A DNA stretch of 15,375 nucleotides from an uncultured Methanosarcinales archaeon. Its GTDB lineage: Archaea; Nanobdellota; Nanobdellia; Woesearchaeales; JAGVZT01. The notes beneath the pieces are model-generated. The model was not told where the DNA came from. It did no database searches and worked only from the letters and a program-made list of their open reading frames with translations. The stretch lies in the NCBI GenBank assembly GCA_964419615.1, contig CAYQPU010000031.1:1-15375 (forward strand). Direction: 5' to 3'. Below are positions 3,988 through 10,367 of this stretch, piece by piece (position 1 is the stretch's first letter; every line of letters begins with the position of its first letter). Position numbers and translations under genes: made by a program.

Positions 3988-4464
3988 ATGGTATCAACTA
4001 AAATCAAGGCAAAAGACTTAGTTATACTAAGTCATTTGAGAGAAAATGGTCGGACCACATTAACCAAAATAAGCCGGAAGACATCAATACCTGTAACAAC
4101 AATATACGAACGACTAAAACACCATGAAAAAGGAATAATACAAAGACATACACTGTTGTTAGATTTCAATAAATTGGGATATAACATAGTGACAAAAATG
4201 CTATTTGGTGTGAACGTGGAAAACAAAAGAGATTTGGGAGAATTTCTAACCCAAAGCCAACAAGTAAACTCGGTTTACAGAATAAACAATGGATATGACT
4301 TCATTGTTGAAGGAATATTCAGACAAGTAAGAGAAGTAGAGCGGTTTATTGAAGATGTTGAATCCAAATTTGACATCACTACAAAAAAATATTATTTTGT
4401 ATTAGAAGATCTTAAACGAGAAGGATTCATGAGTGCCCCTCAGAATCCAATGAAATTAGTTTAG
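3988..4464 (+). CDS. Lrp/AsnC family transcriptional regulator
   Basis: N-terminal HTH (KDLVILSHLRENGRTTLTKISRKTSIPVTTIYERLKHHEKGII), linker LDFNKLGY, and a C-terminal RAM-type domain (VYRINNGYDFIVEG). SD GAGGTGA at 3977-3983. Confidence 0.92.
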   Translation: MVSTKIKAKDLVILSHLRENGRTTLTKISRKTSIPVTTIYERLKHHEKGIIQRHTLLLDFNKLGYNIVTKMLFGVNVENKRDLGEFLTQSQQVNSVYRINNGYDFIVEGIFRQVREVERFIEDVESKFDITTKKYYFVLEDLKREGFMSAPQNPMKLV

Positions 4465-4553: not shown

Positions 4554-5279
4554 TCAGTAATGCAGTTTTGGTGTACATTTAATAGGTGCCTCTTTATCCA
4601 TAAGAATATTAATCATCTCTTCTGATGGCTCAAAAAGTTTTGCGTCAGTTTCTACCGCTAACTGTTCATAAAAATATGGGAAATGAGTGCAACCCAAAAT
4701 AATAATTTCAGCTCCACTTTTACCCAAATAATTACATATCTTATGAAGTGAGTGCTTTTTAATTATCTTGTCAGGTGAAATCTTGTTTTCAACATCATAA
4801 ACAATATTTATATTACCATAGCCGATAACAAAGGCATTCTTATTTTTCTTAAGAATTCTTTTTTCAATATTACCAACGCTCTGTCCATTAGCTGCAAGTA
4901 GACCAAATTGACTATGACTTAAAGCTAGTTTCTCATAAACCTCTATTGGAGTAGCAATTGTAGCATTTGTTTTGTTCAGCACTAGAGGCAAGTCAATTGC
5001 ACCTGATAGGGAATTACAGTATATCATTACTTTTCTTATTCCTTGACTTTCAAGTAATTTCACTGCTTTGATTACAATTTTTGTAAGCTCAGGTTTATTT
5101 AATGCCTGCAGCCTTGTTTGCTCCTGCGGAGTATTTGATATTGAAACACCTGTTGCAGGAATATTTTTCTGCTTAAGTAATTCTAAACCAAGTTCAGTAT
5201 CCACAGTAGTTGCTGCAATAACTCCAATAGCTTCCACATCAAAATTTATCACATTATTTTCCACAATTTTTATTTTCAT
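4554..5279 (-). CDS. Aspartate/glutamate racemase family protein (cofactor-independent, two-cysteine)
   Basis: Both catalytic motifs are present: IYCNSLS and ILGCTHFP. Likely ATG at 5279 with a purine-rich SD (GTAGAGGG); the track uses the TTG at 5285. It lacks the MurI GxFDSGxGG N-terminal motif, so it is not called murI. Confidence 0.85.
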   Translation of the reverse strand: MKIKIVENNVINFDVEAIGVIAATTVDTELGLELLKQKNIPATGVSISNTPQEQTRLQALNKPELTKIVIKAVKLLESQGIRKVMIYCNSLSGAIDLPLVLNKTNATIATPIEVYEKLALSHSQFGLLAANGQSVGNIEKRILKKNKNAFVIGYGNINIVYDVENKISPDKIIKKHSLHKICNYLGKSGAEIIILGCTHFPYFYEQLAVETDAKLFEPSEEMINILMDKEAPIKCTPKLHY

Positions 5280-5324
5280 TTCCAATCCCTCTACTTGTTT
5301 AATTAATATATAATTTATTCTTTG

Positions 5325-5340
5325 TATTTAAGTTCTCTTG
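5325..5340 (-). promoter_or_regulatory. Possible internal BRE/TATA for the racemase gene
   Basis: The minus strand reads CAAGAGAA-CTTAAATA in the ~80-nt gap, 46 nt upstream of the ATG at 5279. Confidence 0.35.
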
Positions 5341-5361
5341 AACAATTTATTCCCATAGGAA

Positions 5362-6900
5362 TTATCTTAAGAGCATTCCTTTTCGAGCACCAGTTAACTT
5401 TCCATCATTAACACATAGCTCACCATTAACAAATACATAATCAACTCCCTTTGAAAGCAAAGTGGGCTCCTGAACAGTTGCCCTATCTCTAACTAATTTA
5501 TCAAACACAACAATGTCTGCAAAATATCCTTGATTAAGTTCTCCCCTCATAGGAATATTGTACCTTTTAGCAGGTGCAGTTGTGACCTTATCTATTGCAG
5601 TTTCAATACTAAGTGGATTAGGAGTATATTTTGAAATTAATCTTGGAATGTTTCCATAATTTCTTGGATGACATAGCGTTTTTTCAGAACTATCATAAAT
5701 AAGAGCATCTCCGGCAACAATTGAATTATTATGGGTTAATACTCTAACAACATCCTCTTCAGACATCATATCATCAAGTGTGCACTTGACTAGTGGATCT
5801 TGTAACAATAACTCAACAGCTGTTTGAAAGCATGACAAACCTAATTCATCTGCAATATTAGAAACTGTTTTTCCTGAATATTCAATATTAGAACACAATG
5901 TAATATACACATCAGCCCAATTGTTATTACACCACGAATGAACTCCATGAGCATTAGCTTCTTGTTCTGCTATTTGGTCAAATTGAATATTTTTAAGTAC
6001 ATCCTCAGTAAGACCATCCACACCATAAAGAGACTTTGGCACAATAACTCTCAGAGAAGTATGAGCCCCTCTATACAAATAAACCTCTAGCCCAATGTCC
6101 ATACCTTGATCATTACCTTCATCTATCAATGAAATTGTTCTTTGTGTCAATCCCCAATTATCTCTTCCAGCTGCTTTATGGTGAGCAATTTGAAGTGGAA
6201 CTCCTGCTTGGTCCGCAGTTTTTATAGCTTCCTGCACTGCTTTTACTACCTTTGGTCCTTCATTTCTAAGATGGGTTTTGTAAAGTCCTCCAACCCCATT
6301 TAAAGCCCCCAGTATCTTTATCATCTCTTGTTCTGATGTAAACATACCTGGTGCATAAATAAGTCCAGAAGATACTCCTAGGAATCCAAGCTCACCCACA
6401 TATTCTCTTACGATTTCCTGCATAGCTTTGATTTCTTCAGAAGATGCAGGTTGAGTATCTTGTCCCATAACAGAATATCTAATGGACCCTTGACCAACAA
6501 GGAATCCTGCATTCAACGGTATTCCCTTTTGTTCCAATTCAGTAAAATAATCCTCCGGATTTTTCCATACTCTACTTTCTGTATTCTGAATTATTGCGTC
6601 ATTACCTGAAGTAGGTAGTGCAGAAACACCGCAATTACCAACAACAATTGAAGTAATACCTTGAGTTAATAGATTTGCGCCATCATAACCTCTACTGAGC
6701 AAAATGTCTCCATGATTATGTACATCAATAAAACCAGCAGATACATATTTACCTGATGCGTCAATAACTTCAAATCCTTCTTGCACTGTAATATGATCTG
6801 AAACATGTTCAATCTTATTACCTCTAATAAAGATATCTTTTTGCATTGTTCCATCTTTTGACACAAGACTTCCTCCTTTGATCAAGTACATTTTGTTCAT
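5362..6900 (-). CDS. N-acyl-D-amino-acid deacylase (D-aminoacylase family amidohydrolase)
   Basis: Family motifs: GFIDVHNHGD (HxH), GITSIVVGNCG (Cys ligand), GVSSGLIYAPG, HLRNEG, QIAHHKAAG, AGD (catalytic Asp), HPRNYGNIPR, RGELNQGYFADIVVFD, and GVDYVFVNG. SD GAGGAG upstream. Confidence 0.9.
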   Translation of the reverse strand: MNKMYLIKGGSLVSKDGTMQKDIFIRGNKIEHVSDHITVQEGFEVIDASGKYVSAGFIDVHNHGDILLSRGYDGANLLTQGITSIVVGNCGVSALPTSGNDAIIQNTESRVWKNPEDYFTELEQKGIPLNAGFLVGQGSIRYSVMGQDTQPASSEEIKAMQEIVREYVGELGFLGVSSGLIYAPGMFTSEQEMIKILGALNGVGGLYKTHLRNEGPKVVKAVQEAIKTADQAGVPLQIAHHKAAGRDNWGLTQRTISLIDEGNDQGMDIGLEVYLYRGAHTSLRVIVPKSLYGVDGLTEDVLKNIQFDQIAEQEANAHGVHSWCNNNWADVYITLCSNIEYSGKTVSNIADELGLSCFQTAVELLLQDPLVKCTLDDMMSEEDVVRVLTHNNSIVAGDALIYDSSEKTLCHPRNYGNIPRLISKYTPNPLSIETAIDKVTTAPAKRYNIPMRGELNQGYFADIVVFDKLVRDRATVQEPTLLSKGVDYVFVNGELCVNDGKLTGARKGMLLR

Positions 6901-6916
6901 TCTACTTTTCTCCTCA

Positions 6917-8125
6917 CTATCTATGGTTATTCATCTCAATATCATGCTGCATGCATGCAGCATCTATAACATAAGAACCAATATCCATGGCTTCTCCAAT
7001 GAGAATTTTTCTTAGATTTCTATCACTCATAGTTTCCAAGTATTCAGCAATCAATTTCTTATCAGTAAAATAAGCAAACTTTATCCCATCTTTTCTTACC
7101 TTACCTTCTGGTCGACCATATCGTTCATCATTCAAATAAAAAAATCCAGGCATATAACTAACCGGACAAAAACCGTTTTCAAGCAGTTCACTCTGTGTTG
7201 ACGCCATCTCTGGTGTTGCAGGAATGTCAACTTCAACATACATAATTCCTGGGTGAAGATGATTTGCTGTTCTAACTAAGGATTTAACATCCAGACCAGC
7301 TACTTTGTCTGTGTATACTTTCATCCACCCGCACACAGAAGGATCTGCATAAACAAAATCTTCGTAGTTCTTTAGAGTGACCCTTGTTTTCTTCTTACCA
7401 GAGGAGATACTTTCCCCAAGACTTACGATCTCGCTGGATTCCAGTAAACCAAGCCTTCCTAAGACAATCTCAGCTAAAGGAGTGACTCTCTTGTCAAGAA
7501 CACTTAAACCACATCTTTCTGTACCTGCATAAGTGTCAAGTGAAAGATTATGGCAGACACTTACCCTTCCATTCCAATAAATTATATCAAAGTTACTGAG
7601 TTCTCTCCAATAATCAGCAGATGGAATCTTGTATTTTAAAGGCATAAAGCCAACAATCGGCATATCAAGATTTTCTTCGCAATTTCCTTGCGTTGCCTTA
7701 TGCATTGTATTTGTATCTGCCTCAACAACAAGATCCATACTTTCAAGATCTTTCATCATAAACCTAGAAAGCTGGCCAAATAATCCGTTCTGAGTGTAAC
7801 CCATCTTTGTAACTCCTCTACACTTTTCAACTCGATTATTAGTTTCATCAAACATGAAAGCTCCAGCTGTAGCAATCTCTCCTGATTCCAAATCCTCTCC
7901 AAGATACAATAGTAATTCAGGTAACTCTTGGTTAGCCAGTGAATCTTGTATCTGAATAGCACGTTTGAAAATAGAATCCGGATCATTAAACTCTACAATA
8001 AAATAATCAGCATCATTACCTCTACTCCATCCATCTCTATAGGTATTAACAACCTCATTAGCAATTCTCTTATCTGGTTCCAATAACTTATATTCAATTC
8101 CATCAATTATAGTTGGTTTTAACAT
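6917..8125 (-). CDS. Putative divergent GNAT-fold N-acyltransferase (possibly two GNAT-like domains)
   Basis: RVEKCRGVTKMGYTQNGLFGQL resembles GNAT motif A (b4-a3), followed by EADTNTMHKATQ and GFMP. The C-terminal half has a second YVEVDIP...LLENGFCPVSYMPG unit. The glycine loop is degenerate, so the assignment is tentative. SD GGAGG at 8133-8137. Confidence 0.55.
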   Translation of the reverse strand: MLKPTIIDGIEYKLLEPDKRIANEVVNTYRDGWSRGNDADYFIVEFNDPDSIFKRAIQIQDSLANQELPELLLYLGEDLESGEIATAGAFMFDETNNRVEKCRGVTKMGYTQNGLFGQLSRFMMKDLESMDLVVEADTNTMHKATQGNCEENLDMPIVGFMPLKYKIPSADYWRELSNFDIIYWNGRVSVCHNLSLDTYAGTERCGLSVLDKRVTPLAEIVLGRLGLLESSEIVSLGESISSGKKKTRVTLKNYEDFVYADPSVCGWMKVYTDKVAGLDVKSLVRTANHLHPGIMYVEVDIPATPEMASTQSELLENGFCPVSYMPGFFYLNDERYGRPEGKVRKDGIKFAYFTDKKLIAEYLETMSDRNLRKILIGEAMDIGSYVIDAACMQHDIEMNNHR

Positions 8126-8138
8126 TCTATTTCCTCCT

Positions 8139-9008
8139 TCAGATCCAAATCTGAAACAATATCATTGCCACAAACGACAACACTATGCTTGTCCACTTTG
8201 TAGAGTCAATTCTCTCTCGAAACAATAGTATCGACAATAGCGTCATGAAAATAACATCAAGATTATAGACTGCAACACTAATGATTGACGACATATTTCT
8301 TAATGATGTGAATAAAAGATAATACTGGCTCAAAATAATAAAAGCTAAAACAATAAAAGCAAAGCCCAAGTAGACATTGTGTCCAAAGAAATTTAGTTTT
8401 CTTCTAACCGGAATTAATCTTATTTTTTTCTTCCTAACTATGTTTAATAAAACTGTAATTAAGAGGAAAACCACACCAATACCCCAATACAGAAAAAAGG
8501 GATTGTGCACCGATACTGCACGTTTTAAAAAAGTAAAATAAATTCCCCAAAAAATCATAGCAATAATAACATACAATTTTTTTCTTGAAAATAATGTTCT
8601 GAAAATATTTTTTTCTTTTACATACAACAAACATATTGAAACAATAACTAAAAATATGGCAAAATAAATTTTAATTGGAAATCTCTCGTCCTTATAAAAT
8701 ACAAAGCAAAGCAAGGACGTAACAATAATTGCAATAATTCTTAATGGTGCAACATCTGAAACATCATTTCTTTTTAGACCTTTAAAATAAAGAATGTTTG
8801 AAGCATAACTGAGAATTCCTCCAATTATTGAGTAATATACAAATGACAAATTGATTGTAAAAAAAAGTAATAATGGCAACTGAATCAATGTTACAAAAAA
8901 CATATAAGATTGAGCATATCTAACAACAGTTGTTTTCTCCAAAATCTTCTTAGAAAAATTTGTTTCCATTGCAGAAAAAAAAGCAGCTAGCAATGGAATG
9001 AAGACCAT
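8139..9008 (-). CDS. EamA/DMT (drug/metabolite transporter) family membrane protein
   Basis: About 10 hydrophobic segments in two repeats, with YFKGLKRNDVSDVAPL and LLSILLFRERID motifs. Likely ATG at 9008, 1 nt after the upstream stop; the track's start is 9029. Confidence 0.85.
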   Translation of the reverse strand: MVFIPLLAAFFSAMETNFSKKILEKTTVVRYAQSYMFFVTLIQLPLLLFFTINLSFVYYSIIGGILSYASNILYFKGLKRNDVSDVAPLRIIAIIVTSLLCFVFYKDERFPIKIYFAIFLVIVSICLLYVKEKNIFRTLFSRKKLYVIIAMIFWGIYFTFLKRAVSVHNPFFLYWGIGVVFLLITVLLNIVRKKKIRLIPVRRKLNFFGHNVYLGFAFIVLAFIILSQYYLLFTSLRNMSSIISVAVYNLDVIFMTLLSILLFRERIDSTKWTSIVLSFVAMILFQIWI

Positions 9009-9009
9009 T

Positions 9010-10182
9010 TTAATCACACATCTCCTCAATCATTTGCATGTCAACTTCATAACCAATTCCTGGATCATCTCTTTGGGCAATGAATCCGTCTTTCATTTGA
9101 GCTGGCCGTAAAACAACGTCTTTTTCCCAGTATCTGTCAGAAGAACTTATGTCTCCAACCATAGTAAATCCCTCAAGAGAATTAAGTGCAATATTGTGCG
9201 CTCGTCCCACACCTGTCTCTAACATTCCTCCAACCCAGAGTGGAATTGGATTACTGTAATTATAGTGAGTAAAACTTTTAAGAACATTATTTTTAGCGTA
9301 ATTATGTATTTGTATAGAATTGTATAATCCTCCAACTCTTCCTGGTTTTATATTAATTATCCTGCATGATCTATTGTCAATAGCAAATTGAGCATCATCA
9401 ACAGAATGAATACTCTCATCAAGACAAATTGGAGTACTAAGCTGACGTTGAATTTTTCCATGATTCCATATATCATTATAATGCAAAGGTTGCTCAATCA
9501 TGATCAAATCAAATTCATCAAGTGCTTTAAGAGTCGAAACATCTTCTGGTAAAAGGGTGTAATCAGAATTTGCATCAACCATGAGTGGAATATCACCAAA
9601 GGTTTCTCTAATTGCTCTAACTGGCTCTACATCATAACCTTTCTTAATCTTAATTTTTATTCTTTGATAACCCTCATCTAATCCATACTCAACTCTTTGA
9701 AGTAATGTGTCAATATCACTTTGAATACCAATACTAATCCCGCAAGGAACATGTTCTGTGACACCACCAAGATATTTCCATAATGGAAGATCGGCTTCCT
9801 TTGCAAGTGCATCCCAAATCGCCATCTCAACACCCGCTTTTGCAAATGAATGACCTCTTATTGGTTTGAAAACATCAAGAAAATCAGTTACACTCTTACC
9901 CTTTCGACCAATTAAGTAAGGTATAATAAATTGCTCTTGGATAATTCTATCTGATTGTGTAAAATCCGGAGAATATAATGGAGTTCCAAGACTTGCAGTC
10001 TCCCCCCAGCCTTCAATTCCATTTTCTGTTATTAATCGAACAAGAATAGCGTCTTTTGCTTCAAATTTTCCAAAGCTTGTTTGAAATGGGTGTATTAAAG
10101 GTAACTTAACATGATAAGTTACAATATCTCTAATTTGCATTGGCTTTGAATTTACATTTACACATGCAGGATCGATAGTCAA
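9010..10182 (-). CDS. N-succinyl/N-acylamino acid racemase (NSAR/OSBS subfamily, enolase superfamily)
   Basis: Motifs: PFQTSFG, GWGE, PLYS, KIK (catalytic Lys), metal ligands VDAN, IEQP and LDES, INIKPGRVGG (second Lys plus second-shell Arg), GGMLETGVGRAHN, GDISSSDRYW. The start is uncertain: TTG at 10182 (6 nt after SD GGAGGTG) or ATG at 10140. It would usually be auto-annotated menC, but no menaquinone genes flank it here. Confidence 0.88.
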   Translation of the reverse strand: MTIDPACVNVNSKPMQIRDIVTYHVKLPLIHPFQTSFGKFEAKDAILVRLITENGIEGWGETASLGTPLYSPDFTQSDRIIQEQFIIPYLIGRKGKSVTDFLDVFKPIRGHSFAKAGVEMAIWDALAKEADLPLWKYLGGVTEHVPCGISIGIQSDIDTLLQRVEYGLDEGYQRIKIKIKKGYDVEPVRAIRETFGDIPLMVDANSDYTLLPEDVSTLKALDEFDLIMIEQPLHYNDIWNHGKIQRQLSTPICLDESIHSVDDAQFAIDNRSCRIINIKPGRVGGLYNSIQIHNYAKNNVLKSFTHYNYSNPIPLWVGGMLETGVGRAHNIALNSLEGFTMVGDISSSDRYWEKDVVLRPAQMKDGFIAQRDDPGIGYEVDMQMIEEMCD

Positions 10183-10188
10183 CAACAA

Positions 10189-10220
10189 CACCTCCGTTAA
10201 TTGTTTGAGAATTGGAGGTG
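10189..10220 (-). promoter_or_regulatory. Inverted repeat CACCTCC-N18-GGAGGTG overlapping the SD of the racemase cluster
   Basis: The minus strand reads CACCTCC AATT CTCAAAC AATT AAC GGAGGTG TTG. The 5' arm is the exact complement of the SD, and the inner AATT/AATT extends the stem. Confidence 0.55.
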
Positions 10221-10347
10221 AAATATTCTTAAAGTGACTTTCTTAGAAAAAATAGAAATGCTTTCTGAATAATATGAAATAATTTTGTATAATTTGATTA
10301 TAAACAGAAAGAAATTCAGAATCATATAATAAAATTGCAATTAGAAG

Positions 10348-10354
10348 AAAAAAA
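10348..10354 (-). terminator. Possible oligo-U terminator after the TIM-barrel gene
   Basis: T7 on the minus strand, within TTTGCATTTTTTTCTTCT, 14 nt downstream of the stop at 10368. Confidence 0.35.
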
Positions 10355-10367
10355 TGCAAACAACCAA

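Follow-up and report, generated by a model that had tools for sequence, protein, structure and literature searches.

The 15,375-nucleotide stretch analysed here (referred to as the window) is contig C31 (CAYQPU010000031.1) of G000, the 1.48-Mb, 99.4% complete genome of an uncultured archaeon of the order Woesearchaeales. Four consecutive genes in the window form a predicted operon encoding an enolase-type racemase of the N-succinylamino acid racemase/o-succinylbenzoate synthase (NSAR/OSBS) subfamily, a transporter of the EamA family, an orphan protein with a predicted GNAT fold (hereafter X), and a homologue of D-aminoacylases (D-acylase). Our tentative reading, which we consider possible on the basis of gene content and a structure model, is that these genes encode an acylate, racemise and deacylate module with a D-specific exit, turning an L-amino acid into its D-form. 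In such a module, X would N-acylate an L-amino acid or an analogue of one from acyl-coenzyme A (acyl-CoA), NSAR would equilibrate the N-acyl-L and N-acyl-D forms, the D-acylase would hydrolyse the N-acyl-D form only, giving a net conversion of L to D at the cost of one thioester, and EamA would remove the free D-product. As a GNAT fold, an NSAR and a D-type deacylase are encoded together without an L-type hydrolase, an L-to-D inverter appears to be the most economical reading of the operon, with X presumably preferring the L-form and sharing an acyl group with the hydrolase.

A sequence-only reading of this DNA had described five co-oriented genes, four of them 1-16 nt apart, in an archaeon-like genome. 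This layout is borne out, as all five open reading frames (ORFs) lie on the minus strand (Table 1), the gaps between the first four genes are 1, 13 and 16 nt when read from the sequence, and a protein of the same-genus relative G020 is named Candidatus Woesearchaeota archaeon in NCBI. Each of the three gaps carries a Shine-Dalgarno (SD) motif (GAGGAG or AGGAGG upstream of the start), with the ATG of EamA lying 1 nt past the NSAR stop codon. Because the gaps are this short and each holds such a motif, the genes from 10191 to 5362 are read as one operon. The start of NSAR itself is ambiguous, with candidates at GTG 10191, at TTG 10188, 10185 or 10182 just after a GGAGGTG SD motif, and at ATG 10140, where all homologues start aligning. 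No RNA families, riboswitches included, were detected in the window at Rfam gathering thresholds, and a scan of the window for bacterial promoters and terminators was discarded as uninformative, its counts being those of the shuffled expectation.

The proteins of the operon

The identities proposed from the sequence alone for NSAR, EamA, the D-acylase and a racemase encoded by the fifth gene were all confirmed by profile hidden Markov model (HMM) and PDB searches. With the NCBIfam models, NSAR reached 317.6 bits against TIGR01928 (cut-off 200.65), while the dipeptide-epimerase, DgcA and muconate models remained far under their own cut-offs. Matches to N-acylamino acid racemases (NAAARs) in the PDB had E-values of 1e-77 to 1e-86 (2zc8, 1.5e-86). 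Alignment to the Amycolatopsis enzyme (1sja) shows conservation of the motifs RIKIKI, VDAN, IEQP, LDES and NIKPGRVGG, and of residues K161/K163, D189, E214, D239, K263 and R266 in Amycolatopsis numbering. The last of these, a second-shell arginine, has been linked to racemase activity in published work (PMC12006748). Neither MenD (TIGR00173) nor MenB (TIGR01929) was found in the 99.4%-complete genome, with control searches positive; an OSBS activity would therefore have no use, and the protein likely functions as an NSAR. Twelve residues inserted in NSAR at ~301-312 (window 9256-9291), KNNVLKSFTHYN, have no counterpart in any of the four solved homologues aligned.

The fourth protein aligns to the D-aminoacylase of Alcaligenes faecalis DA1 (1m7j, E 7.5e-65, in two stretches) and to the N-acyl-D-Glu deacylase Bb3285 of Bordetella (3gip, E 1.5e-56). 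Compared with these two enzymes, it keeps the metal ligands, the catalytic Asp and the carboxylate-binding Arg and Tyr (equivalents of HxH, Cys96, His220, His250, Asp366, Arg377 and Tyr283 in the alignment), but identity is only ~33-35%, and the mobile alpha/beta insertion that sets specificity (query residues 285-332) does not align to the solved structures. The protein scored 127.5 bits against NCBIfam PRK09061 (cut-off 340), and its family also includes a carbohydrate de-N-acetylase (9kb1, E 2.5e-47). From homology, we infer that the window hydrolase is D-specific. The earlier observation that an enzyme of the D-specific amidohydrolase family replaces the M20 enzyme of the described pathway holds, as no M20 gene lies in the window and the cluster hydrolase belongs to the D-aminoacylase family. 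Among the D-acylases compared, those of the three X operons are most closely related to one another (55% and 37% identical to that of the window), after which similarity drops to generic homologues; three of the latter lie beside Opp, DAO/MFS or S58/M20 genes, without NSAR.

Protein X is the least familiar member of the set. Five members of its family gave no Pfam match even at E<=10, and no match was obtained in NCBIfam or among PDB sequences. An exhaustive HMMER search places the family at 7 cluster representatives among 1.84 billion, and a search of genome contigs recovered again only the metagenome-assembled genome (MAG) L002, assigned to Nanoarchaeota. An AlphaFold2 model built from a six-sequence alignment (predicted local distance difference test, pLDDT, 64.7; predicted template modelling score 0.66) shows the GNAT order b1-a1-a2-b2-b3-b4-a3-b5-a4-b6 in residues 5-161, followed by a second alpha/beta half. 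The 35 Foldseek matches listed for this model are GNATs without exception; the best has E 1e-6, and 15 reach E<=0.001. Of the 50 rows from VIA-align, 47 are GNATs, some of them tandem GNATs that span residues 5-362, with Z<=8 throughout, and ESM language-model features gave 0.96 to GNAT clusters. The description of X as GNAT-like thus stands as far as fold and language-model features are concerned, whereas no sequence model recognises the protein; its assignment as a GNAT-fold protein is supported by the predicted fold. Across the family, 42 columns are invariant, many of them polar (E100, R103, H142, K164, R187 and others), which suggests that X is an active enzyme. In the pyrophosphate loop between b4 and a3 (Q/R-x-x-G-x-G/A), Gly114 is invariant and GxG is present in four of six members; the window protein reads QNG.

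These features of X bear on an alternative in which nothing is acylated and the operon serves the catabolism of N-acyl-amino acids. Imported N-acyl-L- and N-acyl-D-amino acids would be converted to the D-form through NSAR, hydrolysed and racemised to L, with X serving in regulation or binding, or as an enzyme that uses a different acceptor (for instance an aminoacyl-tRNA-dependent transferase making dipeptides). The lack of a recognisable GNAT sequence motif in HMM searches of X, the incomplete GxG in two of six members including that of the window, the chemically coherent order of D-acylase followed by racemase, and the aminoacyl-tRNA synthetase (aaRS) genes beside three related clusters are all in keeping with this scheme. 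It is nevertheless improbable, given that a GNAT-fold gene, drawn from two unrelated families, is present in every cluster seen that combines a D-acylase with NSAR, and is therefore integral to them. The route would also be roundabout when M20 acylases exist, and no Fem-type or L/F-transferase is found among the top structural matches of X.

The transporter matches PF00892 at 2.8e-24 with two repeats, and a comparison with solved PDB structures yielded no match. The EamA family, like the AlaE family encountered in a related operon below, is known mainly for exporters of amino acids or metabolites, and EamA is predicted here to export. Exporter-type families are also what would be expected if the clusters detoxified by chiral inversion, with a toxic L-analogue (e.g. 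of methionine or glutamate) acylated by X, inverted by NSAR, released by the D-acylase as the harmless D-form and expelled by EamA or AlaE, so that cellular L-acylases could not regenerate the toxin. Among the Foldseek matches of X, alpha-N-acetyltransferases that act in the detoxification of L-amino-acid analogues (ArsN, PAT/BAR, MccE, YncA and PA4866) are overrepresented, the MetRS and MetK genes near related loci would encode the protected targets, and the block is rare, patchy and accessory, occurring in one of the 301 genomes of the order surveyed. The template modelling (TM) scores of those matches are low, however (0.25-0.32 by query), and generic GNATs score equally; moreover, neither a toxin nor a producer gene nor a resistance context can be seen, and the racemase is left unexplained. 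We regard detoxification as very unlikely.

Recurrence of the gene set and direction of the pathway

In the survey of the order, X was found in one genome (that of the window), the NSAR subfamily, the D-acylase and the window racemase subfamily in three genomes each, and the M20 type in 38 (a count that includes one unpublished genome, G183). Two genomes from different families, G000 and G168, have both NSAR and the D-acylase, in each case side by side; with each gene this rare, the association is not chance. A neighbourhood check for co-conservation, as the sequence-only reading had proposed for the cluster, found the four-gene block or its triad of GNAT-fold, NSAR and D-acylase genes again in L002, in L003-5 and in G168. 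The Nanoarchaeota MAG L002 carries NSAR, EamA, X and D-acylase in the order of the window, at identities of 60, 44, 42 and 55%, respectively. In an abundant archaeal lineage (L003-5), the order is X, D-acylase, NSAR, an AlaE exporter fused to a racemase, and MetRS. The fusion protein (L003 13905-15137, plus strand), encoded by the last gene of this operon before MetRS, has 410 residues and joins a full-length AlaE L-alanine-exporter domain (86 bits) to an Asp/Glu-type racemase domain, an arrangement that suggests racemisation coupled to transport.

Two loci from one Woesearchaeal family (f60), which lie beside the same S6e and aminotransferase neighbours, are informative about direction. In G168 (contig C7; L038 5443-9120), a 346-residue orphan (o346) is followed by a D-acylase, NSAR and two aaRS-type genes. 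In G288 (contig C53; L037 2091-5430), a 351-residue GNAT-like orphan (o351) is followed by NSAR and an M20 hydrolase, the sole M20 of that genome. The model of o346 (pLDDT 83.6) is a GNAT, with Foldseek GNAT matches at 5e-6, and the Atlas structure of o351 matches GNAT clusters with TM-scores of 0.67-0.75 by query. The possibility that the two orphans are distant members of the X family was rejected, as profile comparison gave a probability of 0.1 and no relationship, and the orphans are also unrelated to each other; X, o346 and o351 therefore represent independent GNAT-fold families. Between G168 and G288, the GNAT-fold protein and the hydrolase have been exchanged together while NSAR was retained, and a joint exchange of acyltransferase and hydrolase around a constant racemase is what a reversal of direction requires. 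No M20 was found anywhere in the G168 genome (97% complete). This swap, together with an M20-less G168, lends indirect support to L-to-D logic reversed relative to the described pathway. The triad of GNAT-fold protein, NSAR and D-acylase is seen in four architectures and with two unrelated GNAT-fold families, and no L-type hydrolase occurs in any of these clusters. Elsewhere in Woesearchaeales, in G246 (C6 41662-45108), a distant MLE-type enolase (29% identical to NSAR) lies 1.5 kb from an M20 peptidase, a pair that may be a dipeptide epimerase and its peptidase.

The same comparisons have to be weighed against a route of D-to-L salvage, a serious rival given that G000 encodes an unlinked M20 (C5:21835-22878). 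Here N-acyl-D-amino acids or L-Xaa-D-Xaa peptides would be taken up by EamA and cleaved by the D-acylase to give free D-amino acids. The freed D-amino acids would reach the L-form through the adjacent racemase, or through X acting as a D-amino-acid N-acyltransferase, then NSAR and the C5 M20, a futile cycle being avoided if the D-acylase does not accept the acyl group added by X. G000 encodes an M20, as do all five genomes of its family, and the one on C5 is the closest homologue of the M20s found beside X (L006) or NSAR (G288), at 36-38% identity (38% to that of G288). X pairs with M20 in two other lineages, the MetRS, MetK and Trp/TyrRS neighbours of the related loci point to a supply of L-amino acids, and the racemase lies directly downstream of the block. 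In addition, DPANN archaea are auxotrophic scavengers, and sediment necromass is rich in D-amino acids (PMC8561730). On the other side, none of the D-acylase clusters, in their four architectures, includes an L-type hydrolase, G168 has the triad and no M20, and the GNAT and hydrolase types change jointly between G288 and G168. Further, no binding-protein-dependent importer is present and none of the enzymes has a signal peptide. The loci that pair X with M20 have no NSAR within 10 kb, and therefore do not demonstrate the canonical route either. Taken together, we consider salvage somewhat unlikely.

Several observations weigh directly against the L-to-D inverter. The C5 M20 could complete the canonical D-to-L route in the same cell. 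Two members of the X family stand beside M20 with no nearby NSAR, namely P0004, a 42% sister of the D-acylase-linked P0003, which adjoins an M20 peptidase in L006, and P0006, which is encoded in the order AsnC-X-MetK-M20-MetRS; if X were L-specific, pairing it with an L-deacylase would achieve nothing. The aaRS-type and MetK neighbours at three related loci (MetRS, MetK, Trp/TyrRS) suggest that the cell's need is for the L-amino acid. A racemase of free amino acids would undo an irreversible L-to-D route on a shared substrate, and the racemase subfamily is found within the X operon of L003 as well as adjacent to the block in the window. Transporters of the DMT type can import, the confidence of the X model is only moderate by both its pLDDT and its VIA-align Z values, and a DPANN archaeon without a cell wall has no known use for D-amino acids.

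As for the compounds that the L-to-D module would handle, the substrate may be methionine or another hydrophobic amino acid, a weak guess made because of the MetRS and MetK neighbours and the known preferences of both enzyme families (PMC12149444). A source of acyl-CoA in G000 is a 2-oxoacid:ferredoxin oxidoreductase (256 bits), and no Succ_CoA_lig domain was found in this genome, and hence no succinyl-CoA or acetyl-CoA synthetase of that type.

Two gene arrangements around these M20 enzymes are recorded here as separate observations. On C5 of G000 (20552-28991; L027 3553-11992), the M20 gene comes immediately after SerRS and 4 kb upstream of MetRS. The AsnC-X-MetK-M20-MetRS genes of L008 (9501-15261; also in L009-L011) form a tightly overlapping operon on a contig with a sigma-70 gene, which is bacterial. 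MetRS in L008 is called as two ORFs of 203 and 203 residues (247 and 166 in L011), so the gene may be split or interrupted, or may contain a frameshift.

The adjacent racemase and the edges of the block

Table 1. Positions of the operon genes and adjoining features in the window
Feature	Coordinates	Strand	Basis
NSAR/OSBS-subfamily enolase, first gene of the operon	9010..10191	-	TIGR01928, PDB NAAAR matches
EamA/DMT transporter	8139..9008	-	PF00892, two repeats
Orphan protein X (P0001, 402 aa), predicted tandem GNAT fold, presumed amino-acid N-acyltransferase	6917..8125	-	Predicted fold
D-aminoacylase homologue (Amidohydro_3 amidohydrolase)	5362..6900	-	1m7j, 3gip matches
Two-cysteine Asp/Glu-type racemase, rare subfamily, separate older unit	4554..5279	-	PF01177
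Upstream region of the racemase, low-coordinate border of the four-gene block	5280..5361	-	Alignment to G020
Leader/promoter region of the four-gene operon, high-coordinate border	10192..10367	-	G020 similarity ends; SD
Lrp/AsnC regulator, convergent with the racemase	3988..4464	+	HTH_AsnC and AsnC_trans_reg domains

The racemase matches PF01177 at 34.8 bits (cut-off 31), and its Cys88 and Cys197, which are invariant and lie in the motifs CNS and GCTHF, align to the catalytic motifs of MurI. An in-frame ATG is found at 5279 and a TTG at 5285. At the same site, the relative G020 encodes a racemase of 243 residues that is 68% identical, in the order TIM-barrel gene, directly racemase, then Lrp, with the four-gene block missing. 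The 82 nt that separate the D-acylase from the racemase in the window align with the intergenic region between the TIM-barrel and racemase genes of G020 up to the D-acylase stop codon, and on the high-coordinate side the resemblance to G020 is lost just past the TIM-barrel stop codon. Since G020 has the racemase but not the block, and the gene comes with an upstream region of its own that is conserved, the racemase is a separate, older resident of the locus. The inclusion of this gene as fifth member of the cluster therefore fails, as it lies outside the operon. The link to the block does not appear accidental, however, given that the racemase domain of the AlaE fusion inside the L003 operon shares 51% identity with the window racemase. 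The racemase probably belongs to the same functional neighbourhood as the operon, acting on another substrate or at the transport step.

Gain of the block in G000 and its loss from G020 are both possible on the sequences compared. GC content was considered as a signal of transfer and gave none (0.344 for the block, 0.335 for the genome), and flanking repeats, considered as scars of insertion, amounted to short matches at chance level. The upstream region of the racemase holds a near-palindromic sequence, ATAATTCCTATGGGAATAAAT, at window 5341-5361 (minus strand), shared with the G020 locus (L020 ~4270-4290); it could serve as an operator, perhaps of the neighbouring Lrp. The Lrp/AsnC gene is kept in relatives that lack the four-gene block, and Lrp/AsnC genes lie directly upstream of X in L003 and L008; the one in the window is an ancestral neighbour and possibly an amino-acid-responsive regulator. 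Also in G020 (C5; L020 8479-11028), the match to the MutS of the window comes in two pieces ~1.3 kb apart (window residues 1-206 and 207-406), and mutS may thus be interrupted by an intein or some inserted element.

Comparison with known systems and significance

The only natural NSAR pathway described is that of Geobacillus, in which a GNAT, an NSAR/OSBS and an L-specific M20 desuccinylase convert D- to L-amino acids (bioRxiv 10.1101/2022.03.03.481873; PMC12006748). The window resembles that pathway in encoding together an acyltransferase-fold protein, an NSAR/OSBS racemase and an N-acyl-amino-acid hydrolase for an apparent sequence of acylation, racemisation and deacylation, and in that the organism has no menaquinone route, which leaves NSAR as the biological activity. 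It differs in that its hydrolase belongs to Amidohydro_3 rather than M20, X is an orphan tandem GNAT without an HMM match, a DMT transporter is part of the operon, the host is a DPANN archaeon, and the implied direction is the opposite.

A second point of comparison is the industrial Amidohydrolase process, in which a D-acylase and NSAR carry out the dynamic kinetic resolution of N-acetyl-DL-amino acids to D-amino acids, with methionine as a standard substrate; this tandem is scarcely documented outside industry (PMC12149444). The same two enzyme families occur in the window, with NSAR presumably feeding a D-specific deacylase in like manner. The process is engineered, however, with enzymes from different organisms and a chemically acylated feed, whereas the window holds a natural operon with a candidate acylating enzyme and a transporter. 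No description of a natural NSAR/D-acylase gene cluster was found in the literature searched. New here are the DPANN archaeal host, the orphan tandem-GNAT family, the EamA gene within the operon, the fusion of AlaE with a racemase, and the natural swap between M20 and D-acylase.

A further extension of the L-to-D reading, which is in our estimate rather unlikely, is that a DPANN archaeon secretes a D-amino acid, through EamA or through the AlaE-racemase fusion in the related lineage, to act on bacterial neighbours or hosts at the level of their cell wall, biofilm or translation, and that a joint exchange of acyltransferase and hydrolase lets related Woesearchaeota turn one scaffold from L-to-D to D-to-L or back. 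Export and an action on bacterial walls are purely conjectural parts of this extension. The comparison of G168 with G288 offers a natural experiment on how the direction of such a pathway is set, and X stands for a very small orphan family of GNAT-fold proteins whose function can be tested. The compact set of three enzymes may also serve D-amino-acid biocatalysis. If salvage is the true role, the operon would show by what route auxotrophic DPANN archaea regain amino acids from necromass rich in D-forms. If the L-to-D module is real, cells could drive the inversion of L- to D-amino acids irreversibly without a pyridoxal-phosphate-dependent racemase, and D-amino acids would gain a role in wall-less symbiotic archaea.

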